Shown piece by piece: positions 2,080-53,977 of a stretch of 64,000 bases of DNA (position 1 is the stretch's first letter; each line of letters starts with the position of its first letter). The stretch comes from an uncultured Christensenella sp. (GTDB taxonomy: Bacteria; Bacillota; Clostridia; Christensenellales; UBA3700), in the NCBI GenBank assembly GCA_910583995.1, contig CAJTYW010000001.1, forward strand, positions 93,366 to 157,365, given 5' to 3'. The notes below the pieces were generated by a model. It was not told the origin of the DNA. It made no database searches and worked only from the letters and a program-made list of their open reading frames with translations. The position numbers were made by a program, and so were the translations under genes.

Positions 2080-3456
2080 ATGACAGATTTTAAGAGTTTT
2101 TTGGATATGGTGCAAGCTGATATTGACGATTTGGCAGTAATGGCAAAAGAAAGTACATACATTAAAAGTGAATATTATGACAAATACGATGTTAAAAGGG
2201 GCTTGCGAGATATTAACGGAAAGGGGGTTCTAACTGGATTAACTGAAATTTCCGATATTATTTCAAGTAAAACCAATGAAGAAGGTAAATCTGTTCCTTG
2301 CAAAGGTGAACTTTATTATAGAGGAATAAAAATCCAAGACATTGTAAATGGCTTTGCAGGTTCTGGTAATAGATACGGCTTTGAAGAAACAGCGTATTTG
2401 TTGCTATTTGGTAAGTTGCCTAATAATGATGAATTGAAAAAATTTATAGATATTTTAGGTGGATTTAGAAGACTTCCTAATAGTTTTGTACGCGATATTA
2501 TTATGAAAGCTCCTACCAATGATATGATGATTGCATTATCAAGGTCTGTTTTGACATTGTATTCTTATGATAGCAATCCCGACGATATTAGCATTACCAA
2601 TGTTTTAAGGCAATGTTTGCAACTTATTGCACAATTTCCATTGCTTGCTGTTTATGGTTATAATGTTTATAAGCACTATTACAATTTGGAAAGTTTACTA
2701 ATCAGAAAACCTAATCCAGATTATTCAATTGCGGAAAATTTGCTTTACATTTTAAGAGAAGATGGCAAGTTTACACCACTTGAGGCGGAATTGCTTGATA
2801 TTTGTCTTGTTTTGCACGCGGAACACGGCGGTGGTAATAACAGCTCATTTACAACGCACGTTGTAAGTTCTTCAGGTACTGATACATATAGTTCAATTGC
2901 TGCATCTTTAGGTTCATTAAAAGGACCAAGACACGGCGGTGCAAATATAAAAGTTGTTAAAATGATTGAAGATATGAAAGCAAATCTTACTGATTATTCA
3001 GACGAGACAGTTAGCAAATATCTTGAAGACTTGCTTGACAAAAAAGCATTTGATAAAAGCGGCTTGATTTATGGTATGGGACACGCTGTATATTCATTAT
3101 CTGACCCAAGAGCGGACATTTTAAAGTCATATATCAAAGCACTTGCTTGTGAAAAAAATGCTCAAAGCGAATACGCACTTTACGAAAAGATACAAAGACT
3201 TGCACCTGAAATTATCGGAAGAAAACGCTCAATTTACAAAGGTGTTAGTTGCAATATAGACTTTTATTCAGGATTTTTGTACAATATGTTAGGGCTTCCA
3301 GTAGAGTTATTTACACCTATATTTGCAATTGCAAGAGTAGTTGGTTGGTCAGCTCATAGAATAGAAGAATTGTCTAATAACGGCAAAATTATTCGTCCAG
3401 GTTACAACGCTGTTTGTGAATATAAAGAGTATGTTGCCCGCGACGATAGAAAATAG
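2080..3456 (+). CDS. Citrate synthase (citrate/2-methylcitrate synthase family)
   Basis: HAEHGGGNNS and GMGHAVY catalytic-region motifs, 458 aa, strong RBS. Confidence 0.9.
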   Translation: MTDFKSFLDMVQADIDDLAVMAKESTYIKSEYYDKYDVKRGLRDINGKGVLTGLTEISDIISSKTNEEGKSVPCKGELYYRGIKIQDIVNGFAGSGNRYGFEETAYLLLFGKLPNNDELKKFIDILGGFRRLPNSFVRDIIMKAPTNDMMIALSRSVLTLYSYDSNPDDISITNVLRQCLQLIAQFPLLAVYGYNVYKHYYNLESLLIRKPNPDYSIAENLLYILREDGKFTPLEAELLDICLVLHAEHGGGNNSSFTTHVVSSSGTDTYSSIAASLGSLKGPRHGGANIKVVKMIEDMKANLTDYSDETVSKYLEDLLDKKAFDKSGLIYGMGHAVYSLSDPRADILKSYIKALACEKNAQSEYALYEKIQRLAPEIIGRKRSIYKGVSCNIDFYSGFLYNMLGLPVELFTPIFAIARVVGWSAHRIEELSNNGKIIRPGYNAVCEYKEYVARDDRK

Positions 3457-3661
3457 TCGTTAATAAGATAACAAGATGGATATTTACGGAAATACAATTT
3501 GATAATAAAATCATCTTAAAATTAATAAAAAATATAAAAAAAGCATATAAAATGCTTGCATTATTTAAAAATATATAGTATACTCACTTTTATTTTTAAA
3601 ATATTATACAAAAACAATACCGAAAGGTAAATTTATATCATAACAAAAAAAGGAAAAAACT

Positions 3662-5128
3662 ATGTCTCCCCAATGTATAGCTTATATTATTGGAATTATT
3701 GTATTGACAGCTTTATCTGCATTTTTTAGTGCAAGTGAAACTGCCTATAATAGTTTGAACAAAATCAAACTTAAAAACAGAGCAAACGAAGGCTCTAAAG
3801 GTGCAAAAAAAGCACTGCTTTTAGTAGATAACTATGACAAATTGATTACTACTATTCTTATTGGTAACAATATTGTCAATATTGCAGCTGCAACTATTGC
3901 GACTTTGCTTTTTACTGAAATAATCAAGTCAAATGCTGATTTAGCAGCTACAGTTTCTACTATAGTTGTAACTGTTATCACATTGATATTTGGTGAAATT
4001 ACTCCAAAAAGCATTGCAAAAGAGTTTGCTGAAAGTTTTGCAGCAAGAGTTGCAACCATTTTGCAAATTTTGTGCTTGATTTTTACTCCGTTTACTTGGT
4101 TATTCTCTTTATGGCAAAAGTTAATGATTAAGATTTTTAAACCAAATGCCAATGCGGGAATGAGTGAGGCGGAATTGATTACTATGGTTGACGAAGCCAC
4201 AACAGAAGGTGGTATTGATAAAGACGAAGGTGAGTTGATTCGTAGTGCAATTGAGTTTAATGAACTTACAGTAAAAGATATTTTTACACCGCGTGTTGAT
4301 GTAATTGCAGTAGACGTTGATGCAAAAAAAGACGAACTACGTGATTTGTTTTTGGAAAATGGTTTTTCAAGATTGCCTGTTTATGAAGAAGATATTGACA
4401 ATGTTATCGGTATACTTCACGAGAAAGATTTTTACAAAAATTACTTTAAAAAAGAATTTGATATTAAAAAATATATGACACAAACAATTTGGGTTACTTT
4501 AAACTCAAATTTGTCAAGCGTTTTAAAAATGTTACAAAAATCAAAAGCTCATATGGCAGTTGTTTTGGACGAGTATGGTGGTACAGCAGGTATTGTCACA
4601 CTTGAAGACATTTTGGAAGAACTAGTTGGCGAAATTTGGGATGAACACGACGAAATTATTGAAGATATTGTCAAACTTAGTGAAAACGAATATCAAATTA
4701 CTGGTGGCTGCAATATTGAAGATATGTTTGATGCTTTAGGTCAAAAATATGATAGTGACGAACTTGAAGTTACTACCGTAAGCGGTTGGATTGTTGACCA
4801 TTTTGGTTATATTCCTAATATTGACGAGCAATTTGATTATAACAATTTGACGATTAAAGTTATCGATGCTGACCCTAAAAAAGTTGAAAAAATATATGTA
4901 AAGGAACTTGCAAAAATCGAAGAGGAAGACGATGGCACTTTCATAGATAAGTTTTTTATGAAGGATAACGACGATAAGGAAGAAGAGAATAAGAAAGCTG
5001 AAAAGTTATTCCATAAAGAAGATAAATCAATTGATAATAATGATAAAGTAGCCGAAACTACAGAAAAAGTAGTGGACGATACAAAAATTGAATTTGACGA
5101 TATTGAAATAAACAATATTGAAAAATAA
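3662..5128 (+). CDS. Hemolysin-family / CNNM-type protein (DUF21 membrane domain, CBS pair, CorC_HlyC) with acidic low-complexity tail
   Basis: N-terminal TM bundle with GEITPK motif, CBS region, LEDILEELVGEIWDEHD CorC motif. C-terminal ~90 aa is rich in E/D/K. Confidence 0.85.
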   Translation: MSPQCIAYIIGIIVLTALSAFFSASETAYNSLNKIKLKNRANEGSKGAKKALLLVDNYDKLITTILIGNNIVNIAAATIATLLFTEIIKSNADLAATVSTIVVTVITLIFGEITPKSIAKEFAESFAARVATILQILCLIFTPFTWLFSLWQKLMIKIFKPNANAGMSEAELITMVDEATTEGGIDKDEGELIRSAIEFNELTVKDIFTPRVDVIAVDVDAKKDELRDLFLENGFSRLPVYEEDIDNVIGILHEKDFYKNYFKKEFDIKKYMTQTIWVTLNSNLSSVLKMLQKSKAHMAVVLDEYGGTAGIVTLEDILEELVGEIWDEHDEIIEDIVKLSENEYQITGGCNIEDMFDALGQKYDSDELEVTTVSGWIVDHFGYIPNIDEQFDYNNLTIKVIDADPKKVEKIYVKELAKIEEEDDGTFIDKFFMKDNDDKEEENKKAEKLFHKEDKSIDNNDKVAETTEKVVDDTKIEFDDIEINNIEK

Positions 5129-5153
5129 AAATAAAATTTAAAGGAAAAAAAGT

Positions 5154-6149
5154 ATGTTAGAGCATATTTATGAGTTTGAAAAAAATTATTTAAGTCCTTA
5201 TGCTTGTCACACTGTGGACACAAAAGGTAGACAGATACCTTTGAGTCAATCTGAGTTAAGAACTGATTTTCAAAGAGACAGAGACAGAATTATTCACAGT
5301 AAAGCATTTAGAAGATTAAAGCATAAAACACAAGTGTTTTTGTCACCAAAAGGCGACCATTACAGAACGCGCCTTACTCATACCTTGGAAGTTATGCAAG
5401 TTGCTAGAACTATTGCAAGAGCTTTAAGATTGAATGAAGATTTGACAGAGGCAATAAGCTTAGGTCACGATTTAGGACATACTCCTTTTGGGCATAGTGG
5501 CGAAAATGTGCTTAACAAATTAAATCCTAATGGCTTTGAACATAACAAGCATAGCTTAAGAGTTGTAGAATTTTTAGAGAACGATGGAGAAGGTTTAAAT
5601 TTGACTTTTGAAGTACGCGATGGCATTTTGCATCACAAAAAAAGCGGTAAACCATCTACTTTGGAAGGTAAAATTGTGAGTTATGCAGACAGAATTGCAT
5701 ATATGAATCACGATATAGAAGATGCGATTCTTGGTGGAATTTTGACAGAAAAGGATATACCAAAGTACATAACAGACGTTTTGGGCGATAGTAAAGCAAA
5801 AAGAATCAATACTTTAGTTACAGATTTGGTTAATAATAGTTACAATCAAAATTTTGTTTGCTATTCTGAAAATATTGAAAAAATGGCAGACGAATTGAGA
5901 GACTTTATGTTTAAAAGTGTTTATTTTAATCCTAAAGCTAAGATTGAAGAGCAAAAAGCCAATCAAATGATTGAATTTTTGTATGACTACTATATGAAAA
6001 ATATCAATAAATTGCCTGCTTTTTATATTAGCTTGATTGAAAAATGGGGCGAAGATAATGCTGTAACAGATTATATTGCCAGTATGACAGATACATTTGC
6101 TGTAAAAGCATTTGAAGATTTGTTTGTACCTAACTGTTGGAATATTTAA
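5154..6149 (+). CDS. dgt: dGTP triphosphohydrolase-like HD-domain protein
   Basis: FQRDRDRIIHSKAFRRLKHKTQV and HD motif (GHDLGHTPFGH). Conserved position upstream of dnaG. Confidence 0.85.
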   Translation: MLEHIYEFEKNYLSPYACHTVDTKGRQIPLSQSELRTDFQRDRDRIIHSKAFRRLKHKTQVFLSPKGDHYRTRLTHTLEVMQVARTIARALRLNEDLTEAISLGHDLGHTPFGHSGENVLNKLNPNGFEHNKHSLRVVEFLENDGEGLNLTFEVRDGILHHKKSGKPSTLEGKIVSYADRIAYMNHDIEDAILGGILTEKDIPKYITDVLGDSKAKRINTLVTDLVNNSYNQNFVCYSENIEKMADELRDFMFKSVYFNPKAKIEEQKANQMIEFLYDYYMKNINKLPAFYISLIEKWGEDNAVTDYIASMTDTFAVKAFEDLFVPNCWNI

Positions 6150-6249
6150 GGTATTATAATATTTATTTTTATAAATATACAATAGATAATTGTTAGATAA
6201 TTGTTAATTTAATTAAATTTTGACAAAATATAAGTAATGGGAGTTTAGC

Positions 6250-8061
6250 TTGTATAAGGATTATTCAAGTTTTTTGCAAGAACTTAGGGATAAATCGAAT
6301 ATTATTGATGTTGCTCAAAAATATGTCGACTTAGAAAAAAAAGGTGGACGTTATTGGGCAAGGTGTCCTATTCATAATGAAAAAACTCCTTCATTTACAT
6401 TGGACGAAGTTAAAGGCACTTTTTATTGTTTTGGCTGTCACGCTTCAGGAGATGTTTTTTCTTTTATTGAACAAGTGGAACACGTTGATTTTAAAGAAGC
6501 GGTGCAAATACTTGCAAACAGAGCAGGAATGGAAGTACCATCTTTTAAAAGCGACTATAATAAAGAAAAAAGAGAAGCGGAAAGATTAAAAAAAGAAAGA
6601 TTGTATGCTTTAATGCGTGATACAGGCATTTATTATCACAACAATTTAATGGCTCAAAAAACAGGCGAAGTTGTTGATTATATTAATCACAGAAAACTTA
6701 CAAGAAACACAATAAAAACTTTTGGTATGGGCTATTCTTCAGGTTTTAGTGAGTTAATTGATTTTTTAAGAGAAAAAGGCTATACCGATAGTGAAATGCT
6801 TGAGTGTGGTGTTGCCAAAGAAAAAAATGGTAAGCTATATGATTTTGAAGCTGGAAGATTGATTGTGCCTATTTTTAACAATATGAACAATGTAGTAGCT
6901 TTTGGTGGAAGAGTTTTGGGCAGTGCCGATTTTATGAAATATAAAAACACTGAAGAAACTTTAATTTTTAAAAAGAGAAATGAACTTTTTGGCGTGCATA
7001 CACTTAAAAAAGCTAAACTTACTGAAAATTTTAACTGCGTAATTGTAGTTGAAGGATATATGGATGTGATAATGCTGCATCAAGCGGGAGTTAAAAATGT
7101 TGTTGCATCTATGGGCACAGCTCTTACAAACGAACAGGCAAGAATGCTTAAATATTATAATAACAATATATATTTGTGTTATGACGGCGATAATGCAGGA
7201 CAAAAAGCAACTTATAAAGGTATTGATATTTTAAGAGATGCAGGGCTTAATGTTAAAGTAATAACTTTGATTGAAGGACTTGACCCTGACGATATTATAA
7301 AACAATATGGTGTAAGTAAATTTAGGGAGTTGGTGGAACAAGCGATTTCACCAAGTGAATATAAAATTCGTGCAGTGGCAAAGCAGTTTGATTTAAGCAC
7401 TCCTGAAGGGCAAGGTAAGTTTGCGGTAAAAGCACTTGAAGTTTTATCTGAGCTTTCCACATTAGTGGAACGAGAGGCTTATATCCCTTTAATTGCAGAG
7501 TTAAGTAGTTTATCGGAAAATAGTCTTTCTAAACAGCTTAATAAAATGGAAGACAATGCAGGCGGATATAAAGAAACTCAAGAGATTGTTGCCGATAAAA
7601 ATGAAGGCAAATTTAATTTAAAGCCTAGTTACAATAAATATTTTAAAGCGGCAAGGTTTTTGTTGTATTCTATATTTAAATATGATGCACTTGATGTTAT
7701 AAGCGAAGATATTTCACCATATTTAAAAGAAAAAGAACATATAGCAATATATGATTACGCAAGAGATTTAAAAGCACGAAATATAGCTTTGAATTTAGAT
7801 TTATTAAACGAAATCGAAGGTAACAGCGAAGCAAAAGTTATAGCAGAAAGTAAATTTGAAGAAATTCCAAATGACTGCAAAGAGCAAATGCTCAAAGATT
7901 GCTTTGTTACTTTGAAAATAGATTTTTTATCTGCAGAAAGGCAAGAACTAGAAATGCAACTGGCAGATAAAAATCAAGATAACAAAAAAATGCTTCAAAA
8001 TCAAATTTTGGATATTAATAATCGCATTTTGGGGCTAAAACGGAGGAAAAATGGAAAATAA
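6250..8061 (+). CDS. dnaG: DNA primase
   Basis: CHC2 zinc finger ([11 protein letters not shown]...CFGCHASGD), TOPRIM (VVEGYMDV...[10 protein letters not shown]). TTG start. Overlaps rpoD start. Confidence 0.95.
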
Positions 8062-9148
8062 AGAGAAATCAACTCGCAAAACAAAAGAAGACAAATTTAC
8101 TCAAGCATTAAATAGCTTGATTGATTTAGGTAAAAGTAAGAAAAACAAAGTTTCTAGTGACGAAGTTTTGGCAAAAGTCGAAAAATTACTTTTAGATGCC
8201 GAAGATATGGAAGAAATGTACACCAAATTGAGTGAAGCAGGCATTACTGTTGAAGAGTTAACTCTTGAAGAAAAAGTTTCTCTTGACAAGATAATGGGCG
8301 ATGGTAGTACAGATGACTCTGTTAAAATGTATCTTAAAGATATTGGTTCAGTGCCATTGCTTACAAGTGAAGAAGAAGTGGAACTTGCTAAAATGATGAC
8401 AAGTGATAACCCTAAAGATAGCGAATATGCAAAAAACAGACTTAGTGAAGCAAACCTACGACTTGTTGTAAGTATTGCAAAAAGATATGTAGGTAGGGGT
8501 ATGCAATTTCTTGATTTAATACAAGAAGGTAACTTGGGTCTATTGAAAGCAGTTGAAAAGTTTGACTATACAAGAGGCTTTAAATTTTCTACTTATGCTA
8601 CTTGGTGGATTAGACAATCAATAACAAGAGCTATTGCTGACCAAGCTAGAACTATAAGAATACCAGTGCATATGGTGGAGACAATCAACAAAACAAACCG
8701 TGTTGCTCGTACATTATTGCAAGAGTTTGGAAGAGAGCCTAGTACTGCTGAAATTGGTGAGAGAATGGGGCTTCCAGAAGAAAAAGTTGCCGAAATTTTA
8801 AAAATCGGACAAGACCCTGTTTCTTTGGAAACACCAATCGGTGAGGAAGAAGATAGCCATTTGGGTGATTTTATAGTTGATACAACTGCAACATCTCCAA
8901 GTGAATCGGCAGAGTCTAAAATGCTTAGAGAGCAATTGCTTCAAGTATTGAACACTTTGACACCACGTGAAAATGAAGTTTTAAGAAAAAGATATGGCTT
9001 AGATGACAATAGACCAAAGACTTTGGAAGAAGTTGGCCGTGAATTTAATGTTACTCGTGAGCGTATAAGACAAATTGAAGCAAAAGCTTTGAGAAAATTA
9101 AGACACCCAAGCCGTACTAAAAAACTAAAGGATTATATGAACAGATGA
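8051..9148 (+). CDS. rpoD: Primary RNA polymerase sigma factor (sigma-70/SigA)
   Basis: Regions 1.2-4 are recognisable: [75 protein letters not shown]. Confidence 0.97.
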
Positions 9149-43629: not shown

Positions 43630-46600
43630 TTATTGTTTATAATTAACCCCAATATCGTAATCTAATACATTACCATCTATTTTTACAATAAATATATCGT
43701 TATCGGTGTTTGCAGCTACATTATTTACTATAAAGCTATTTTTATTGCTTTTTGCTATTTTTATAGTTGCCTTATAATTTTCAAAATTTAACTGCACAGA
43801 ATAATTATCAATAGTTTTATTAGGTTTTATTAATATTTGATTGTCTTCAAAGTTTATGCCTAATATATCATTTAAAATTACTTTATAAATCCAAGAACTA
43901 CTGCCTGTATACCAACTCCAACCACCTTCGCCTGTTGTATAAACATCTGCACTTATAACAAAAGGTTCATTGTTGTATTTCATACTATCCTTTGTAATAT
44001 TAATTGGGTTGATAAGGTTTAATATTTCCATAGCTTTGCCCATATTGTGTTTTGCAAGTGCTTTTATAAACCAAGCGACAGAATGAGTGTATTGTCCGCC
44101 GTTTTCTCTTACACCTTCAGGATAATTAGAAATATAACCATAGTACTTTTTGTCATTAAATGGTGGGGCTAATAGTTTAACCAATTTATTTTCTCTGTCT
44201 ACCAGCGTTTCGGCAAATACTAAGGAATGTTTGACTTTATCATCGTCACAAGCACCTGAAATTGCAGAAAATGCTTGACTTATCAAATCGATTTTGCATA
44301 CATTGCAATCTTCTGAGCCTAACCACTCTCCATCTTTTGTAATCGCACGATTATACCAGTTTCCATTGTAAGCGTTTGAAATTCCGTCTTTTAGTTTTTC
44401 CAATGCTTTTTCAAATGCTTTTTTATCTTTTGCATTGCAGTATTTGATAAAACGCGTTATAACATAGTAACAGAACATTGAAAGCCATACACTTTCGCCT
44501 TCCTTATCATTGCCGATATTATTTAATGCATCGTTCCAATCGCCGTCACCAATTAGTAACAATCCGTTTTTACCAAATTTTAAAGCATTATTAATTGCTC
44601 TAACGCAGTGAGAATACAAACTTTCGCTAATATCTGACTTTTCAAAAGCTTTGTACAAATCACTTTGGTTTTCAGGAATACTCTCGCTTTTTAAATAAGA
44701 TAGTACTGCTTTTAAAATATCATTATCGTTTGTAAAATCAATATATTCACAAACAACATAAGGTAAAAACAATTTATCATCACTTATTTTTGTCCTAACG
44801 CCTTCAGCATAGTTATGCCACCAATGTAGTACATCACCTTCTATAAATTGTCTTTCTGCAGATAGCGTAATGTGATATTTAACATATTCCGGATTTGTAT
44901 ACAAATATGCAAGGCAATCTTGTAATTGGTCTCTAAACCCTATTGCACCACCCACTTGATAATATCCGCATTTACCGCAAAGTCTCGCAGAATAAGTTTG
45001 GTACATAAGCCAATTATTAAATAAAGTGTCTAATTCCTTATTATCAGTTGAAATTGTAATTTTATTTAAGTTTTCAAAGCTTTCTAATGTTTCTTTTATT
45101 TTATTCTCTACAATATCTTCAGTATAGTCATTAATAATTTCGTCATCACAAGACATAACGATAAATAATTTTTTACACTCGTGTGGCGGTAAATCAATAT
45201 TTACTTGGTTGTGAAGATTGCAGTTTTCGTCAAAGAATGAGTAAATGTCGCTTTTCAACATTTTTATAAACACTCTTTGGTTTGTTTTTACATTATTAAC
45301 TGCAGTGATATTGTTTTCTGTAGACATTATCAAGTTTCGTTTTTCTCTGTCTACGCCTAAGGCTAATTTAAGTCTAAAGTCGATTTTTGCATTTTGTGGA
45401 TAGTCTTTAATGTTAGTAATATTTAAAGAGTAAAGTTTGCTTTTTCCGTCATCAATTATCGTAGACATTGTATTGCATTGCAAACCATTGTACAAAAGCA
45501 CAAAATCAATAAAACCTTGACCGTATTTTACATATCCACCTTCGGCAAATTTATTTAAAATTAAATTCTTGTTTTCTGCAGTCAAAATTACACTTTCACT
45601 ATTAATGTTTCCATAAGCTTCACCACGCCACTCTGTGACTTTGCAGTTTCTGGAATTTCCAAAATAAGTGAAGTTTTCTCCATTATTAGATGCCACAAAT
45701 CCGCCATATTTACCGCATATTACATTGCTGTATGGCTTTTTTGTTTTGCAGGTTAAAATATAATTTTTGCCCGAAAAACCACCGCAGTTATTTTGTATAT
45801 TAAAAGGTGGAATATCAATATTTTCACTTTTTACACAAGGTATATTTTCGCTTTTTTCATAATTAGTATTTATTATGATTTCGCTATTTAATGTGATAAA
45901 AGCTATTTTTTTGATATTATCTGCAACATTTTTGTCTTTATTAAATATTACTTTAATATCATAAAACTCTTCTCTTATGAGTTTATGAACGCCTTCTAAC
46001 ACGCCGCTACAAAATATAGTAAAATCACCACATAATGGCTTTAATATTCTTAACGATTTTAGCAATAATTTAAATGAATTACTATCTAGAGTGTTAAGGT
46101 AAATTATATCGTCATTAATCGATATTCCGTATCTAGCAAGTTCTTCTGCAATTTCTTTGTTCTCTTTTGCTTTTAGACTAAGAGTGTTATATTTGCCATA
46201 CTTTAATTTGTAAGCTAGTTTTGTCAAAAAATCATAGTTGCTATTTGAATCAAATATTTTTCGTATTGCAGAAAGTGTCGGTAATTTTGCAGAATAAATC
46301 AAATTATAAACAGCTTTTTTGCAATTAATTTGCGATAATTTGCTTGTAAGTTCGCTATAGCTTTCTGCATATAAAATAACTTGATAATATTCAAAGTTAT
46401 CCATTTTACTGCAATCAATATTGCTATTGTAAGTGAATATAGGATATACGATATCGCCAAAAGAATTATCAAATTCCTTGTCATTAAAATTGATTTTTCC
46501 TGTTATTATATCGTAACAATTGCTTTTATTGCTCTCAAAAACAATTTTGCCAGCACCGATTATTCTGATAGCTACATATTTTTTTATGTTTGATTTTCTT

Positions 46601-49600
46601 CTGTAAATCACAGTGCAATCGTCATATTTTTGGCTTGATATAAACAAATCTTTAAACGCAGGGTGTGCGATATAGTCCGCTTCACTTTGAATATTTATTT
46701 CACCTACACCACGTATATTAATATTGTTTAAGTTTTTGCAGTTTATATTAAACTTTCTAACTTCGCCATTTATGCAGTTAGGAATATAAATTTCTGCACA
46801 TATACCTTGCTTTGTGTTGGCATATTGCACTTTTTCGGTATCTGCAACAAAAGCGTAATCGGACGAATTTTTTAAGCTAGGATAATAGCAGATTTCTTCA
46901 TTTGTGTCATTATTGTAAATAGTATTTTTAAAACCAAAGCTTTCAAAAGTGTTGTGATACTTGCAAATATTGCTATTATAAATACTGCTTAAATTATCAC
47001 CAAAACTATTAAAGAAAGCTGTGTATTTACCATTTGTAAGCACTCCAATTGTATTTTTATCTTCTGTTTTAAAATTAGTTCCGTCAAACTTGCTATATAT
47101 AAAGTCTTCTTTCGGTTTTTTAAAACTTCTCTCTTGAATTTTTCTCTCACTTAGCAAGATTTTTGCAGACTTAATTTTTTGTTCACTCTCAAAAAATTCG
47201 GAAATATTATTGCCACAAATCGCATTGGTAATGCTAGCAAGTATCATACCTTGATGGTGGCTCATATATTGGTAGATAATATGCTTTCTTGAAGTAATAT
47301 CAATCGCTTCGTAAAATCCATATTCGCCATAACCACATTCTTTTTTGATAGCTTGAAGATTTTTAACTGCTTCTTTAGCGTTTATTCGCAAAGCTAAAGC
47401 GCTGGCATAAGGCGTGATAACACATCTGTTATGGCTATTTCGTATTGCAAGCTCTTTTAGTCCGAACGAATAGTATTGATATCTTAAATTTTCGTCAAAT
47501 TTATAGTAACCACTCTCAGATATACCCCATATATTTTGACATTTATTTTTTATTGCAAGTTTTACAATATTACTTTCCGTTTGATATAATAAAGAATTTC
47601 TAGGTGCTCTAATAAAAATATTTGGTAGCAAATATTCAAACATTGTACCCGACCAAGAAACAAGCGTATTACCGCCAAAACCAACACAATCACGTGATAA
47701 ATTGTTCCAAGGCGTAGCATTTTGGTAAAAGGCTGCGTATAAATAATACAAAATTCTTGCTTCACTAGCCATTAAATCGTAGTAATTATCAAACGATTGT
47801 GTTTTTACATTATAACCTATGTGGAACAAGTTTTTATCTTTGTCAAGAAGAAAATCCAAATCAATTTCGTCAATTAACTTTGAAACAATATCTATACCAT
47901 ACAATGAGTGTTTTTTAATAAATTGTTTTACAACTATAAGGCAAGCCAGCATATTGCCATTATCTACTGAAGATATATAAAATGGATATGCAGGGGTATT
48001 GTCTTCTATATTGTACCAGTTATAAAAATTGCCATTGTATTTTTCTATATTCTCAAGCAAATTTAATTTGCAAATCAATTTTCTTTCTGCTTCTGCTTGA
48101 CTTATAATACCAAGTTCGCAAGCGCAAATCTCACTTAGGATAGAAAAACCTAAATTTGTTGGTGAAGTATAATGTGACTTCCCGCCAAAAGGACGAATTT
48201 GTATATTGTCTGTAACTAAGTTATTGCTGTCTTGAATATCAAAATATTTATAAGTGCGTCTTGCAACATCAAGCAAAAAGTCCTTTTCAGATGAAGTGAT
48301 TTCCTGTTTTTCATTTTGTTTTATTGATGTGATATACAAGCTTATCGCAAAAGCAATAAATATTGCACTATATCCTACAACATAAATGTTACTTATAAAT
48401 ACAATGCTAATTATCAGCATAACTATACTTTGCGTAACAACAAATCTGCAATAATTATCTATTCCGCCTTTGGATTGAGTTTGGCTAAATGTCGTCCAGT
48501 TTAATCTGTTGCTAGATGTTGAAATCCTGCAAATAATCGTATCTATTGCGACAAGCAAATTGTTAATTGCCATAATAGGCAGTGTGAAGAATGATATAAT
48601 CATATCACCTATTATGGAAAGTATATTTTTTACAACAAAAATTGGTTTTATATTGTGTCTAGTTCCGTCAATTGTTCGTAGCAAACTTAAAAAGTAATTA
48701 GTACCAAACCCAATAATAAATGGTATTGCGTAAATAAAATTACCAGTTATCATACAATTTAGCAAGTGTATCAATAAAGATAGTTTGCTAAAACCGCTCA
48801 TAATATTTAAAATAATTATATGCTTATAAATCGGTGATTTATTTAAATTCTTTTTTTCCTTATCATCGTTTTTTATTGTGTTTTTTACAAATCCACCAAG
48901 CAGTAAATCCCCTTTAAACCAACGATTATGCCTTGAAATTTCAGATGGTATGCTGTTAGGTGCATTTTCAAAAGCGACTTCAGGTAGTTCACCTGTTTTT
49001 AAAACGCTACCTTCAATAATGTCGTGGCTTAAAATTCTGTTTTGTGGGAAAACATTGTTTAGTTTAGCATAATATGGCTCAAGTCTGAATATTCCTTTAC
49101 CACAGTAAATACCTTTACCAAAAAAGTTGTAATAAAAGGAATTAGTTGGCATATAGCGTGAATATCCACAATCAAAGTAGTATCTTTTGCCATATATTGT
49201 ATTCATAGAATATAAGTCATACTTTGTTTTAAAAGTCATTAAGTCATATTGTTTATTAAGTGGGTGCAACATACGGCATACACTATCAAATATTGTGTTT
49301 GGCAACAAGCAATTATCGTCGTCAAGTGTCGCGATAAAAGTAGGTTTTTCTATTTCGTCACGCATTATAAAAGCAAATTTTTCTTTGTCGCCTGTTAAAA
49401 GCAACTCGCAAAAATCAAGTATTGCACCTCTTTTTCTCTCAAAAGCTGTGTAATATTTGCCTTGTTTTACTCTTTTTCTAACAAAAACATTAACATCACT
49501 TAGACCAATTAATCTACTGCTTAAACGCTTATTTAAATCTTCGTCAATGCTCTCTCTTTCATATTTAGATTTTTTATAGTCAACAAGCAAAGCAAAAGAT

Positions 49601-51000
49601 ATGTTTTTTCCTTTGTTTGACATTTGCAATTCTTTAATTTTTGCAACTGCACTATCTGCTGCCCCCATATTTGCTATAAATGTAGGTAAAATTACCATTG
49701 TTTTTGCTGAGTCTGGCAGTTCTTTTAAATCTAGCTTAGGCGTAGGCTTTTTCTTTAATGCAATTGATAAAATGCTAATCAAAATATTATTAATTAGTGG
49801 TAGTAAGAAAAATGGCGATAAAATTAATGTGATAATCATAACCGCAATATTTGTATATGTTAAAAATCCAAATAATGCAGTTATTGCCAAAGTTAGTCCC
49901 CAAACCGCACATATAAAATACAATTCTTTTATTGTAGTGCCTTTTTTGTAGGTTAAAATGACATTGTTGTTTATATAATGCTTTAAAGTTTCCTTTTCTT
50001 CAAACAAGTATTTGCCAAAATGCTCACCTGTTGATTCTTGTAGTTCAAACAACTTTTTGACAACTGTTTGTTCTTCAATTTTATGTTTGTTACTTACTTC
50101 TTCAATGGTGTTTAAATAATCATTTTTGCTGATTATATCCATTGATTTATACATTTCGTCTTGTTCAAGCAAATAATTTGTGTGATTTATTGAAAGCAAA
50201 TATACTCCGTCTAAATCTTTTTTAATAAAATTTAACGAAGCAATAATATTTGCTGTTATTTCGTAATCATTTGCTAATTTTTCTGTAAAAATATATTGAA
50301 TATTATCAAGATTTCCGCTGTAGTCTTCTATATATTTTTTATCATTTTCCAACTTGCCAAATTTGCTTCTAAAATACAAATAATCGTCCGTATTTGCAAG
50401 TTCTTTAGCAAAATCGAATTTTTTTGCCACATTTTCGTAATATTTAAGATTTTCTGATTTTTTTGTCATTTCGGCAACTTTGCTAACCAAAGCATACAAT
50501 AATGCTTGTGGCAAAGCAGAAATTTCGTCAGTTGATAATGGCGTATATTCATTAAATTTTTCAATAATTGCTTTAATATTTTGTTTATTTATATCACATT
50601 GAGTGTTGTTGATTATATATTCAGCAAGCAAAATAATCCTTACTTTGCCATAATTATGCGGAAGTATAGCAAAGTATTTAAAGTTTTGATTATTAAAACG
50701 AGACATTATATTATGATAATTTTCGTATATTAATTTTTCATATAAATATATTTCATCATCATTTTTTATTTTTTTTGCAATTAAATTGTACATCACCTTT
50801 ATTTTTTTAGCTTTAGACATAATTTGTGGCGCTGCACCATAAGATTTTGGATTGCGTAATTTTTCTGCCAGTTTTGCTGTATTTAATTTTAAATCTTCGT
50901 CGCTCATTTTGGAAATAAGTTTGTGATTTAATCGCATTTTTAATGCAAAGTATCCGAATATAATCACAAGTATACTAAGTCCAACAATAATGTAAATCAT
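43630..51000 (-). CDS. Cyclic beta-1,2-glucan synthase-like giant protein (GT84 glycosyltransferase, glucoamylase-like middle domain, GH94-type phosphorylase domain)
   Basis: One uninterrupted ORF. GT84-like motifs ATLDDDN, LSHDIIEGS, RHNRWFKGD flanked by TM helices. SVDNGNMLA (alpha/alpha-barrel family motif). Long C-terminal GH94-like region. ATG 51000 preceded by GGAGGT. Confidence 0.75.
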   Translation of the reverse strand: MIYIIVGLSILVIIFGYFALKMRLNHKLISKMSDEDLKLNTAKLAEKLRNPKSYGAAPQIMSKAKKIKVMYNLIAKKIKNDDEIYLYEKLIYENYHNIMSRFNNQNFKYFAILPHNYGKVRIILLAEYIINNTQCDINKQNIKAIIEKFNEYTPLSTDEISALPQALLYALVSKVAEMTKKSENLKYYENVAKKFDFAKELANTDDYLYFRSKFGKLENDKKYIEDYSGNLDNIQYIFTEKLANDYEITANIIASLNFIKKDLDGVYLLSINHTNYLLEQDEMYKSMDIISKNDYLNTIEEVSNKHKIEEQTVVKKLFELQESTGEHFGKYLFEEKETLKHYINNNVILTYKKGTTIKELYFICAVWGLTLAITALFGFLTYTNIAVMIITLILSPFFLLPLINNILISILSIALKKKPTPKLDLKELPDSAKTMVILPTFIANMGAADSAVAKIKELQMSNKGKNISFALLVDYKKSKYERESIDEDLNKRLSSRLIGLSDVNVFVRKRVKQGKYYTAFERKRGAILDFCELLLTGDKEKFAFIMRDEIEKPTFIATLDDDNCLLPNTIFDSVCRMLHPLNKQYDLMTFKTKYDLYSMNTIYGKRYYFDCGYSRYMPTNSFYYNFFGKGIYCGKGIFRLEPYYAKLNNVFPQNRILSHDIIEGSVLKTGELPEVAFENAPNSIPSEISRHNRWFKGDLLLGGFVKNTIKNDDKEKKNLNKSPIYKHIIILNIMSGFSKLSLLIHLLNCMITGNFIYAIPFIIGFGTNYFLSLLRTIDGTRHNIKPIFVVKNILSIIGDMIISFFTLPIMAINNLLVAIDTIICRISTSSNRLNWTTFSQTQSKGGIDNYCRFVVTQSIVMLIISIVFISNIYVVGYSAIFIAFAISLYITSIKQNEKQEITSSEKDFLLDVARRTYKYFDIQDSNNLVTDNIQIRPFGGKSHYTSPTNLGFSILSEICACELGIISQAEAERKLICKLNLLENIEKYNGNFYNWYNIEDNTPAYPFYISSVDNGNMLACLIVVKQFIKKHSLYGIDIVSKLIDEIDLDFLLDKDKNLFHIGYNVKTQSFDNYYDLMASEARILYYLYAAFYQNATPWNNLSRDCVGFGGNTLVSWSGTMFEYLLPNIFIRAPRNSLLYQTESNIVKLAIKNKCQNIWGISESGYYKFDENLRYQYYSFGLKELAIRNSHNRCVITPYASALALRINAKEAVKNLQAIKKECGYGEYGFYEAIDITSRKHIIYQYMSHHQGMILASITNAICGNNISEFFESEQKIKSAKILLSERKIQERSFKKPKEDFIYSKFDGTNFKTEDKNTIGVLTNGKYTAFFNSFGDNLSSIYNSNICKYHNTFESFGFKNTIYNNDTNEEICYYPSLKNSSDYAFVADTEKVQYANTKQGICAEIYIPNCINGEVRKFNINCKNLNNINIRGVGEINIQSEADYIAHPAFKDLFISSQKYDDCTVIYRRKSNIKKYVAIRIIGAGKIVFESNKSNCYDIITGKINFNDKEFDNSFGDIVYPIFTYNSNIDCSKMDNFEYYQVILYAESYSELTSKLSQINCKKAVYNLIYSAKLPTLSAIRKIFDSNSNYDFLTKLAYKLKYGKYNTLSLKAKENKEIAEELARYGISINDDIIYLNTLDSNSFKLLLKSLRILKPLCGDFTIFCSGVLEGVHKLIREEFYDIKVIFNKDKNVADNIKKIAFITLNSEIIINTNYEKSENIPCVKSENIDIPPFNIQNNCGGFSGKNYILTCKTKKPYSNVICGKYGGFVASNNGENFTYFGNSRNCKVTEWRGEAYGNINSESVILTAENKNLILNKFAEGGYVKYGQGFIDFVLLYNGLQCNTMSTIIDDGKSKLYSLNITNIKDYPQNAKIDFRLKLALGVDREKRNLIMSTENNITAVNNVKTNQRVFIKMLKSDIYSFFDENCNLHNQVNIDLPPHECKKLFIVMSCDDEIINDYTEDIVENKIKETLESFENLNKITISTDNKELDTLFNNWLMYQTYSARLCGKCGYYQVGGAIGFRDQLQDCLAYLYTNPEYVKYHITLSAERQFIEGDVLHWWHNYAEGVRTKISDDKLFLPYVVCEYIDFTNDNDILKAVLSYLKSESIPENQSDLYKAFEKSDISESLYSHCVRAINNALKFGKNGLLLIGDGDWNDALNNIGNDKEGESVWLSMFCYYVITRFIKYCNAKDKKAFEKALEKLKDGISNAYNGNWYNRAITKDGEWLGSEDCNVCKIDLISQAFSAISGACDDDKVKHSLVFAETLVDRENKLVKLLAPPFNDKKYYGYISNYPEGVRENGGQYTHSVAWFIKALAKHNMGKAMEILNLINPINITKDSMKYNNEPFVISADVYTTGEGGWSWYTGSSSWIYKVILNDILGINFEDNQILIKPNKTIDNYSVQLNFENYKATIKIAKSNKNSFIVNNVAANTDNDIFIVKIDGNVLDYDIGVNYKQ

Positions 51001-51222
51001 AATTACCTCCGCTATAGCCAATTATTTACAAATTAAATTAATGTATACTTATATTTATAAAAGTTTAAAACTTAAACAAATTTTTTAAATTAATTTGATT
51101 CAATCCCTTTAAAATTCAAGTATCATAAATTATTAACTTATAGAAACGGCAAAAATTATGATTTTTTAATTATAAATAGTTATTTTGTTGTAAAATTATA
51201 AAAAATATGTTAAACTATATAT

Positions 51223-51546
51223 GAGTTGACCAGATAATCGCATTTAATATGAGGAAAGTCCGAGCATCACAGAGCAGGACGCTGGCTAATTACCAGTGAA
51301 GGCGACTTCAAGGAAAGTGCAACAGAAATATACCGCATTATTTATAATGTAAGGGTGGAAAGGCGTAGGTAAAAGCTCACCACACCTAAGGTGACTTGGG
51401 TGGTTATGTAAACCCCGTCCGATGCAAGAGACAATGACATTTACGGTTGCTCGCCGGTCAGACAATCGCTTGAGATTATTGGCAACAATAATCCTAGACA
51501 GATGATTATCAAATACAGAACTCGGCTTATAGGTCAATCTCACCAT
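51223..51546 (+). ncRNA. rnpB: RNase P RNA, bacterial type A
   Basis: GUUGACCAGAUAAUCGC...GAGGAAAGUCCG...AGUGCAACAGA...GUAAGGGUGGAAAGG...GUAAACCCC...CUAGACAGAUGAUUAUC...ACAGAACUCGGCUUAUAGGUCAAUCUCACC, collinear with the E. coli M1 RNA conserved blocks. P1 pairing gagttgacc / ggtcaatctc. Confidence 0.95.
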
Positions 51547-52434: not shown

Positions 52435-52464
52435 TTTATACTTGGATTATTAGTTAAATGGATA
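52435..52464 (+). repeat. 30-bp direct repeat, copy 2 (overlaps the genuine tRNA-Arg 5' half)
   Basis: Identical to 52329-52358. Confidence 0.9.
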
Positions 52465-52518
52465 TAACAAGCCCCTCCTAAGGGCTAGTTACAGGTTCGA
52501 TTCCTGTATAGTCCACCA
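52444..52518 (+). tRNA. tRNA-Arg (anticodon CCU), CCA encoded
   Basis: Manual cloverleaf. Acceptor ggattat/atagtcc (one G-U), D stem gtta/taac, anticodon stem agccc/gggct with loop CUCCUAA, T arm acagg-ttcgatt-cctgt, discriminator A, CCA. Confidence 0.9.
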
Positions 52519-52523
52519 TTAGT

Positions 52524-52571
52524 AAATAATACGAACCATAATGAAAATTATTGGTTCGTATTATTTATTTT
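52524..52571. terminator. Strong terminator hairpin after tRNA-Arg
   Basis: 15-bp stem aaataatacgaacca/tggttcgtattattt, 13-nt loop, then ATTTT. Confidence 0.7.
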
Positions 52572-52667: not shown

Positions 52668-53030
52668 TTAACTATCATAATCATAAGGTGTTTTGTTTAA
52701 TTTTTCGCCAAGTAAATTTATAATATAGCCATTTTCTACTTTACAAAACCACTTTGGATTTTGCTTTGGCAAGTTTTTTAATATATATTCATCTGTACAA
52801 TCACTTTCTTTTACAACTTGTAAATCTTTAATTTCAATTACACACACAATATCTGCTTTTATCTTATCCCAGTTGTCAGCAGTAACTGGTGTTTTGTCAT
52901 AAAACAAAACATTAAAGCATCTACCTCGTATTTCTGCATCAAAAATTATTCCTGTCATTCCTTTAAAAACTTTTTGTTCTTCATATTCTTGTTTTGACAC
53001 TAAAACTTTAACCTCGTCAAAATATTTCAA
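52668..53030 (-). CDS. 120-aa hypothetical protein, N-terminal DUF4926-like small beta domain (candidate immunity/antitoxin)
   Basis: TTG start with GGGAGA RBS, overlapping the upstream stop (TTGA). N-terminal ~70 aa fits the D-x-V-x-V...kG-x-x-G-x-I...V-x-F pattern of DUF4926-type proteins, recalled from memory. Confidence 0.5.
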   Translation of the reverse strand: MKYFDEVKVLVSKQEYEEQKVFKGMTGIIFDAEIRGRCFNVLFYDKTPVTADNWDKIKADIVCVIEIKDLQVVKESDCTDEYILKNLPKQNPKWFCKVENGYIINLLGEKLNKTPYDYDS

Positions 53031-53638
53031 TTTTCACGTCTCCCTAAAAGAGTATTATTTTTTAATTTTCCATTTGAAAATACTATCCAACCAGTCCTAG
53101 TTAAAAATGTTCTACCTAAATATTCGCCTTTACCATCAAATTCAATTACAATATTGATAGCAACACCAAATTTATTATGGCTTATGATATAGTATTCACC
53201 ATCACAATATTTTTTAATTACTTTTTGTTTATAGCTAGTTAAAAATTCTTCATTAGATTTTAAACCTAACATATTTATCCATTGTGATTTGTTGTTAAAA
53301 GTCCAAGTTATTTTGCCTTCTGGAATAATTAATTGAATATCTGATGTCTTTGGTTTAAGGATATCAATTTCTTCACAATGACAATTATAGTGATACATCC
53401 CGATTTTGTTGCGTTTATTCTTAGTGTAATCTTCAATATCTAGTGTCATAATGTCTGGGCGTTTATCTTTAGCATAAGCAAACCAACATTGATTTGATGC
53501 TATACATTTTATACAATGTTTGTTAGTTATTGGACCATTAATTCCTTGCTCAAAATCAAAATCATCAATAACAACATTGTTTTTTTTATCAATTATTTTA
53601 ATCCAAAAATTTGACATGCCTATTAACATACTACTCAT
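53027..53638 (-). CDS. 203-aa hypothetical protein with MuF/SPP1-gp7-like zinc knuckle and an unassigned C-terminal domain (candidate toxin)
   Basis: C42-x2-C45 and H83-x-N-C86-x-C88 resemble the end of phage Mu F-like head-morphogenesis domains. The C-terminal ~110 aa has no motif I recognise. Confidence 0.5.
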   Translation of the reverse strand: MSSMLIGMSNFWIKIIDKKNNVVIDDFDFEQGINGPITNKHCIKCIASNQCWFAYAKDKRPDIMTLDIEDYTKNKRNKIGMYHYNCHCEEIDILKPKTSDIQLIIPEGKITWTFNNKSQWINMLGLKSNEEFLTSYKQKVIKKYCDGEYYIISHNKFGVAINIVIEFDGKGEYLGRTFLTRTGWIVFSNGKLKNNTLLGRREN

Positions 53639-53706
53639 CTCTTAAAACTTATATCAAATTAATATTAATACAAAAATAAATTTTTCAAGAGATTTATGAC
53701 ATTTTT

Positions 53707-53735
53707 TTGAATATTAATTGTTATGATAATATAAT
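53707..53735 (+). promoter_or_regulatory. Consensus sigmaA promoter with no downstream ORF
   Basis: TTGAAT, 17 nt spacer, TATAAT. Confidence 0.5.
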
Positions 53736-53822
53736 AGCAAAATTATTCAAATTGTTCAAGCAAATTAAAAATGTTTGATTAAAAATTCGATTTAGATTAC
53801 AATTATTCCACCATTTTAATAC

Positions 53823-53854
53823 GTACCTTTAATTAAGGTGCTATTTTTGTTTTT
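53823..53854 (+). terminator. Orphan intrinsic terminator
   Basis: gtacctt/aaggtgc stem (one G-U), 5-nt loop, TATTTTTGTTTTT. Confidence 0.45.
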
Positions 53855-53948
53855 ACTTCAGTTATAATAATCATTATTATAGAAAAATTAATTTTTTATC
53901 ATAACAAACTATTTAAATAATTCAACTGAAATAAATACATTATTATTA

Positions 53949-53977
53949 TTGAAAATAGCAATTGTTTGTGGTATAAT
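53949..53977 (+). promoter_or_regulatory. SigmaA-type promoter of the PNPOx-like gene
   Basis: TTGAAA, 17 nt spacer, TGgTATAAT. Confidence 0.55.

Follow-up and report, generated by a model that had tools for sequence, protein, structure and literature searches.

How a protein that resembles a phage head-morphogenesis component comes to stand on a bacterial chromosome, with a small partner gene as its only companion, is the question raised by a two-gene operon on the minus strand of the window, i.e., the whole stretch of 64,000 nucleotides analyzed here from an uncultured Christensenella sp. (contig CAJTYW010000001.1). Our analysis indicates that this operon is probably a MuF-type polymorphic toxin-immunity pair, in which a mini-MuF domain is joined to a predicted ribonuclease (RNase) domain of the DUF6883/BECR-Tox3 family, the resulting toxin being neutralized by a translationally coupled immunity protein of the DUF4926 type. 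The two genes are hereafter called the toxin gene and the immunity gene. The preliminary description of this locus, made from the sequence alone, had viewed them as an uncharacterized toxin-antitoxin or defense pair; their toxin-immunity type was retained, whereas the surplus and orphan immunity genes found in relatives favor a polymorphic toxin and its immunity protein over a toxin-antitoxin (TA) or abortive-infection (Abi) module.

Architecture of the predicted toxin-immunity pair

The toxin gene (53027..53638, minus strand) is an open reading frame (ORF) of 203 amino acids starting with ATG, and the immunity gene (52668..53030, minus strand) an ORF of 120 amino acids starting with TTG. Coordinates and sequence agree with the operon as first described, including the overlap of the two genes by TTGA. 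Indeed, the TTG start of the immunity gene (53030-53028) shares bases with the TGA stop of the toxin gene (53029-53027). A Shine-Dalgarno sequence, GGGAG (53044-53040), is found 9 nt 5' of this TTG and makes up, together with the TTGA (53030-53027), the translational coupling signals of the operon (53027..53044, minus strand). Overlap between the toxin and immunity genes was also found in most pairs of related loci. An alternative toxin start, M4 (ATG at 53629, giving 200 amino acids), is used by the gene calls on near-identical contigs and is better suited by the spacing of an AAGAG sequence; it may be the true start of the toxin. Upstream of the operon, an intergenic region of 327 nt (53639..53965, minus strand) is presumed to hold its own promoter. 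Sigma-70-like hexamer pairs occur there on the minus strand (e.g., 53759-53731), at a frequency not above that of shuffled sequence, and most chromosomal homologues have an upstream region of their own of at least 100 nt. The local G+C content is about 26%, with no contrast to the surroundings of the pair.

The C-terminal domain of the toxin (residues 105-203; 53030..53326, minus strand) had been left unassigned and was suspected to be a polymorphic-toxin domain, PBECR-type toxins being given as an example. A word-index search with the window toxin returned 3 relatives only, and an exhaustive profile search with a 4-sequence toxin alignment returned 265 relatives at E <= 1e-3 among 1.84 billion representative proteins. 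These relatives form two groups, i.e., many full-length matches of about 200 amino acids and long proteins (up to 917 amino acids) that match only at their extreme C-terminus. The long relatives align over their C-terminal ~85 residues (profile positions ~116-200), and in 20 out of 20 tested the Pfam family DUF6883 (PF21814) was located exactly at the matched stretch. Three of these 20 are CdiA-like, with DUF637, Fil_haemagg_2 or PT-VENN domains, while others carry PG_binding_1 or LysM. PF21814 was also matched by 8 of 30 short-form family members. Besides, comparison by hhalign of the short-form alignment (A3) with an alignment of 15 canonical DUF6883 C-termini (A4) gave a probability of 99.9% (E 2.7e-31) over window residues 110-202. 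Judged from these profile comparisons, the C-terminal domain (residues ~105-203) belongs to DUF6883. This family was reclassified as BECR-Tox3, a colicin-like BECR ribonuclease family, in a computational preprint of August 2026 (bioRxiv 10.64898/2026.08.28.747851). The assignment is in line with the suspected polymorphic-toxin domain and falls in the same fold class as the PBECR example.

According to this preprint, the colicin-like BECR topology, common to colicin D, colicin E5 and PBECR1-5 (Iyer et al., 2017), consists of a pre-helix, a helix and four strands. In the AlphaFold2 model of the toxin (pLDDT 90.9), the C-terminal domain comprises three helices (107-116, 118-123 and 129-145) followed by four strands (150-155, 158-168, 177-186 and 191-196), an order which, in the predicted structure, fits this topology. 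The likeness of the toxin to colicin D, colicin E5 and PBECR1-5 would lie in this order of secondary-structure elements, whereas no sequence or Foldseek similarity of the window toxin to solved BECR structures was found and the catalytic residues are not obviously common. Across 58 distinct short-form toxins, the residues K117, G125, Y149, G158, G169 and T196 of this domain are invariant, and K109 and K191 are nearly so. Because canonical DUF6883 has K109, K117, Y149 and T196 conserved as well, these four can be considered as candidate active-site residues and would form an active site devoid of histidine. Through this His-less set, the C-terminal domain would cut RNA, most likely tRNA or ribosomal RNA.

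The partner had been described as DUF4926-like with an extra segment, and this view was upheld at the level of its family. At least 123 relative clusters were retrieved by word-index search, and DUF4926 (PF16277) was matched by 22 of 50 full-length immunity homologues at E <= 0.1 (best E 3.5e-8), the 57-position model spanning residues ~3-61 of the compact members. Of three homologues checked individually, only P0087 exceeded the PF16277 gathering score (33.1 vs 29.1 bits). The window immunity protein alone gave no PF16277 match; its membership of DUF4926 is proposed because of its full-length alignment to the homologues matching PF16277. On this sequence basis, it is probably a divergent DUF4926 protein (residues 1-76; 52803..53030, minus strand) plus a C-terminal extension of 44 amino acids (residues 77-120; 52671..52802, minus strand). 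The AlphaFold2 model of the immunity protein (pLDDT 97.4) matched SH3-like/KOW barrels of the PDB by Foldseek (L24, NdhS, PsaE and SH3 domains), with probabilities up to 1.0 and weak E-values of 0.02-0.15, and an SH3-like barrel is predicted for the N-terminal part. The extension lies outside the DUF4926 model, and no Pfam family matches it. The consensus of this tail is LPKxNPxWWCKVENGYIINLLGEKKNKIPYDYxS, and it ends at the stop codon in an almost invariant PYDYxS.

The two parts of the immunity protein differ in their conservation. Mean pairwise identity across 56 distinct pairs reached 66% for the immunity tail, 47% for the immunity N-terminal part, 44% for the toxin N-terminal domain and 39% for the toxin C-terminal domain, and the tail is kept even beside a second toxin subfamily only ~25% identical to the window toxin. 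The divergence of the toxin C-terminal domain correlates best with that of the immunity N-terminal part (rho 0.46) and least with that of the tail (rho 0.17), a correlation that, given the phylogenetic relatedness of the sequences, is no more than suggestive. The DUF4926 N-terminal part is the probable specificity determinant toward the toxin. The immunity protein would neutralize the toxin by direct binding, its variable SH3-like domain giving the specificity, and the highly conserved tail of 44 amino acids would serve some generic role.

Distribution of the pair and its proposed mode of action

The immunity alignment was used to scan 185,579 GTDB species genomes, which gave 211 matches, and 78 loci were kept (L021-L098). 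Almost all of them come from gut metagenome-assembled genomes of Christensenella, Christensenellaceae or unclassified Clostridia. According to hidden Markov model analysis, 49 of these loci have an intact toxin directly upstream of the immunity gene, 15 combine an intact immunity gene with a toxin that is split or truncated, 10 have the immunity gene only and 4 are cut by a contig edge. Co-occurrence of the two genes in other genomes, which the preliminary description had proposed to check by gene-neighborhood analysis, was observed: the immunity gene directly follows 51 of the 52 intact toxins of the GTDB loci, at -80 to +60 nt, the one exception being at a contig end. Immunity genes outnumber intact toxins (113 vs 52), and 30 loci have surplus immunity genes, in arrays of up to four. 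Because relatives carry such surplus and orphan immunity genes, it is suggested that cells meet these toxins from outside.

The genes next to the modules vary. No neighbor family recurs in more than 11 loci, and the recurrent ones (SpoIIE, Amidase_3, HTH_3, PdxK-like, ECF-RibU and SSB) are housekeeping. Among the 29 tRNAs found in the loci, 18 fall in the 20% of the sequence located at 1 kb or less from the module. A tRNA gene is present within 1 kb of the module in 17 of the 78 loci, i.e., an approximately three-fold enrichment among loci that are not independent, since related species share synteny. In other loci, the tRNAs next to the module are those for Val, Met, Thr, Leu, Asn, Glu and Arg(ACG). 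This distribution suggests that the modules stand at tRNA-adjacent integration hot spots.

Instead of being directed at other cells, the pair could act within its own cell as a TA or Abi module, in which the MuF-like N-terminal domain senses the portal or procapsid of an invading phage and frees the RNase, which then kills the cell or poisons the phage progeny. The two proteins appear cytoplasmic from their sequences, with no secretion or transmembrane signal, and they are encoded by a translationally coupled two-gene operon with its own upstream region. The chromosomal sites are also non-prophage and enriched beside tRNA genes, as detailed above, and binding to the portal is known for the MuF protein gp7 of SPP1 (Jamet et al., 2017, PMC5576092). 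All these features are consistent with an intracellular function. However, no defense-system model of PADLOC-DB matches the toxin or the immunity protein at E <= 10, and the phage homologue presented in the next section is encoded by the phage itself. Moreover, the 30 loci with surplus immunity, the further 10 with immunity only and the 15 with a decayed toxin are typical of protection against incoming toxins. Because of these surplus and orphan immunity genes, the retention of immunity after toxin decay and the phage-borne homologue, protection against incoming toxins fits better than a cis-acting TA or Abi function, and the latter appears unlikely.

Two other types of arrangement were also observed. 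In variant modules, a DUF4926-like N-terminal part carries, in place of the conserved tail, a C-terminal region of another, longer type (161-200 amino acids) (L021 2657-3836; L048 5394-5879; L052 5413-5898; L057 5609-6516), and some of them adjoin toxins without part of the N-terminal domain. In five loci, a protein of ~225-230 amino acids with a weak SH3_3 match, below the Pfam gathering score, is encoded just downstream of the immunity arrays (e.g., L010 6424-7662, where a 169-amino-acid ORF follows, and L093 5409-6107). This SH3_3-like protein could be an unrelated neighbor or an additional cassette.

Relationship of the toxin to phage head proteins

The phage homologue was found on the IMG/VR contig L099 (IMGVR_UViG_3300031555_010284). 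There, a full-length toxin homologue of 218 amino acids overlaps by 14 nt the end of a gene for a P22-like portal protein of 623 amino acids (PF16510, E 8.5e-26). The gene order in 3083-8904 is portal, 218-amino-acid mini-MuF/DUF6883 toxin, three tandem immunity genes, an ORF of 223 amino acids and a major capsid homologue. The location directly after the portal gene is the criterion for MuF families (Jamet et al., 2017, PMC5576092). The toxin homologue of L099 occupies this canonical MuF position, which is the strongest evidence for a MuF origin. The MuF body had been considered as missing from the window toxin; most of a typical MuF protein is absent indeed, but the protein is not necessarily broken. 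A toxin of this short form can fill the MuF slot of a phage, and in at least one case it looks like a whole minimal MuF. The scan of 2.9 million viral contigs with the immunity alignment gave 2 matches only, a scan of viral contigs with canonical DUF6883 (A4) found none, and L099 is the only clear phage-borne version found. By tblastn, no match in the phage collection was obtained for the window toxin, the canonical DUF6883 protein P0251 or the L099 phage toxin, and a word-index search with the A3 profile gave 13 proteins only, none of which has MuF.

With such an origin, the pair might be left over from a prophage head module, in decay and no longer functional. Besides the MuF ancestry of the N-terminal domain, this possibility is favored by the split or truncated toxins of 15 of the 78 related loci and by the location of the window pair next to a tRNA integration hot spot. 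However, both ORFs of the window are intact, and at least 23 contigs of other samples carry them with 98-100% conservation. Family members have median ratios of non-synonymous to synonymous substitution rates (dN/dS) of 0.14 (toxin gene) and 0.08 (immunity gene), values which, for coding sequences, indicate that purifying selection acts on both. Key residues are invariant in the 58 toxins compared. The remaining genes of L099 are without homologues both in the window and in the other loci compared, 98 of which carry an immunity gene, and the module is found in many unrelated housekeeping contexts. A functionless remnant is very improbable in view of these data.

The MuF relationship is also visible in the N-terminal domain of the toxin (residues 1-104; 53327..53638, minus strand). 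The Cys/His motifs first reported for it, C42-x2-C45 and H83-Y-N-C86-H-C88, were confirmed by residue count and are part of a larger set, i.e., H41-C42-x2-C45, C51 and H83-Y-N-C86-H-C88, whose positions H41, C42, C45, C51, H83, C86, H87 and C88 vary little or not at all among 58 distinct homologues. When the family member P0159 was compared by tblastn with 50,697 phage records, 334 weak record matches were obtained; all 30 records among the matches listed fall, via the N-terminal domain, in MuF-type, head-morphogenesis or capsid-maturation genes. The match in Clostridium phage phi8074-B1 corresponds to the last 80 residues of a head-morphogenesis protein of 242 amino acids, whose gene lies between portal and scaffold and in which Phage_Mu_F (PF04233) spans residues 137-238. 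Comparison by hhalign of A3 with this MuF protein gave a probability of 81% (E 1.2e-5), window residues 12-94 being aligned to MuF residues 172-242. In this alignment the CxxC and HPxCxC motifs coincide, and the alignment stops exactly at the MuF C-terminus (last 71 residues). In addition, 14 member-to-family matches were found in five PHROG families of head-morphogenesis or minor-head proteins, and the best BFVD match of the toxin model by Foldseek is a 'Minor capsid protein' (probability 0.95). These comparisons agree with the MuF-related knuckle of the preliminary description. They indicate remote homology between the N-terminal domain (~100 amino acids) and the C-terminal two-thirds of PF04233; this N-terminal domain would constitute a minimal MuF domain, i.e., the zinc-knuckle core of a portal-associated phage head protein, and its knuckle is predicted to bind zinc.

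This likeness, as that of the immunity protein to DUF4926, is visible only at the family or profile level and not from the window proteins alone. Indeed, PF04233 matched neither the window toxin at E <= 10 nor any of 30 relatives at E <= 0.1, and hhalign of A3 with a second, more distant MuF protein gave a probability of only 17%. These results would also suit a generic zinc ribbon unrelated to MuF, in which case the toxin gene would encode a stand-alone Zn-dependent nucleic-acid enzyme and its neighbor a chaperone-like partner; with no other gene type among the 30 listed phage records, an alignment that ends at the MuF C-terminus with a common CxxC...HPxCxC pattern, five matching PHROG families and a phage homologue directly after a portal gene, this explanation is scarcely credible.

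Several observations weigh against a MuF-type polymorphic toxin-immunity pair in the window. First, the window toxin and the window immunity protein have no direct match in Pfam, NCBIfam, PADLOC or PHROGs. The Foldseek searches recommended in the preliminary description gave hints of an SH3-like/KOW fold for the immunity protein and of a capsid protein for the toxin, but the whole two-domain toxin model matched nothing in the PDB at E <= 1e-3, with insignificant NTF2-like or designed curved-sheet matches only, so that the BECR fold can be regarded as putative. Likewise, when PDB sequences were searched with the profiles A2, A3 and A4, no solved structure was retrieved for any relative in DUF6883 or DUF4926. 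The literature yielded only one computational preprint naming DUF6883, with neither an experiment on DUF6883/DUF4926 pairs nor a solved structure of them. Second, the conserved histidine of the canonical DUF6883 HGK motif and the Q-R pair of its YGQR motif are replaced in the window toxin by N116 and V159-A160, respectively; by comparison with the canonical family, the active site may differ or be weakened. Third, the toxin has no secretion signal. Finally, no portal or other phage gene is found near the window pair, whose upstream neighbor is a divergent PNPOx-like gene, and none of 53 intact chromosomal toxins is overlapped by or abutting a large upstream ORF like the L099 portal. The absence of phage genes and the housekeeping neighbors agree with the first statement that the pair does not belong to a prophage head module. 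Copies in GTDB genomes are, like that of the window, nearly always outside prophages and away from portal genes. Large ORFs upstream of some chromosomal toxins were considered as hidden portals, and this idea was dropped: that of L028 is a sugar transporter, that of L076 a serine recombinase homologue, and that of L025 matches unannotated records only.

Under the interpretation as a MuF-type polymorphic toxin-immunity pair, the module would derive from a phage head-gene cluster and now stand alone beside tRNA-Arg in a low-GC chromosome of gut Clostridia (Christensenellales-like). The most plausible delivery would be inside phage capsids, with co-injection of toxin and DNA, as proposed for MuF toxins. 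For the window copy, capsid delivery is unsupported because there is neither a nearby portal or phage gene nor a portal-like upstream ORF at chromosomal toxins. A more speculative proposal, which we regard as quite unlikely, is that gut Christensenellales chromosomes keep portal-detached mini-MuF RNase toxins as an independent cargo, which capsids of resident or invading phages would take up in trans. If so, virions would be armed against competitors without the immunity gene, or progeny phages would be sabotaged, and the conserved immunity tail would control loading or release.

Comparison with known systems

The domain combination had been thought to be undescribed, which no longer holds. 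As reported in the preprint of August 2026, genes for DUF6883 commonly have a DUF4926 gene downstream, and fusions of the domain to Phage_Mu_F are frequent (bioRxiv 10.64898/2026.08.28.747851). The DUF6883/DUF4926/MuF combination, known from this computational work, and the MuF toxin class, known since 2017, are therefore not new. The window pair shares with the BECR-Tox3/DUF6883 and DUF4926 systems the toxin domain, the downstream immunity family and the MuF-type N-terminal fusion. Unlike them, its proteins are below the Pfam thresholds for DUF6883 and DUF4926, the conserved His and Q-R residues are replaced, and the immunity protein adds a conserved C-terminal extension outside the 57-position model. 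Prophage context, immunity arrays and the gut Clostridia clade are unmentioned in the preprint.

With the MuF polymorphic toxins of temperate phages (Jamet et al., 2017, PMC5576092), the pair has in common a MuF-derived N-terminus, a C-terminal toxin and a small downstream immunity ORF and, for the L099 homologue, a place immediately behind the portal gene of a phage head module. In contrast, the window toxin detectably keeps ~70-80 MuF residues only, roughly the C-terminal two-thirds of PF04233, and 96% of the muf genes of that study were in prophages or remnants, whereas such a location is exceptional for the GTDB copies and is not that of the window copy. A third likeness is to the contact-dependent inhibition toxins CdiA-CT/CdiI, homologous C-terminal DUF6883 domains being present in P0229, P0242 and P0225, with DUF637, Fil_haemagg_2 or PT-VENN upstream. 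However, delivery is not alike, the latter being filamentous exoproteins of large size secreted by a type V system, and the organisms are different.

What appears to be new is the portal-detached chromosomal lifestyle of a large gut-Clostridia branch, the immunity arrays and the highly conserved immunity tail. With its compact size (~200 and 120 amino acids), confident models (pLDDT 90.9 and 97.4) and candidate catalytic residues, the window pair offers a convenient entry point to DUF6883/DUF4926 pairs. Besides, such modules are widespread in uncultured gut Clostridia, detached from prophages and accompanied by immunity arrays. This raises the question of how a capsid-targeting toxin works without its phage, which bears on gut strain competition and phage-host conflict.

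Genomic surroundings of the pair

The pair adjoins, as first described, a tRNA-Arg gene, which lies outside the module. This tRNA-Arg(CCT) (52444..52518, plus strand; ARAGORN, Rfam) is convergent with the operon and 150 nt apart from it. The 150 nt hold a hairpin (52523..52567; -19.5 kcal/mol, z = -7.45), to which none of 200 shuffles was equal in stability and which is likely a bidirectional terminator. The tRNA-Arg was considered as the target of a colicin-D-like tRNA-Arg nuclease, an idea that was dropped since other loci adjoin several kinds of tRNA.

In the near-identical contigs L001-L004, an insertion of 4.35 kb is found exactly at the 3' end of tRNA-Arg(CCT) (L001 11119-15472). It encodes a large serine recombinase of 504 amino acids, an HNH protein and small ORFs. 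According to the break points of the alignment between the window and L001, the 7 nt of the tRNA 3' end (52512-52518) are duplicated at the far end of this element. The window shows the empty attachment site of the 4.35-kb element, the toxin-immunity pair being outside the element. The module was also considered as cargo of such a serine-recombinase element; this was rejected, as only L001-L004, L021, L076 and L100 have recombinase homologues close to the module, the element is absent from the window and the pair is outside it.

The core genes around the pair are RNase P RNA, DUF6485, a GH94-family gene of 2463 amino acids, PNPOx-like, DUF2871 and a helix-turn-helix (HTH) gene. The RNase P RNA is of class A and located at 51222-51546 on the plus strand (Rfam RF00010, 256 bits, E 1.2e-83). 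Because it occupies these positions, the ORF of 86 amino acids at 51286-51546 on the minus strand is in all likelihood an artefact, the RNase P RNA gene having been translated as if it were coding. Further away, the ORF of 2463 amino acids (43630-51021, minus strand) has a counterpart in L001 with Glycoamylase, GH94_b-supersand and Glyco_hydro_94 domains, a composition which points to a giant protein resembling a cyclic beta-1,2-glucan synthase or phosphorylase.

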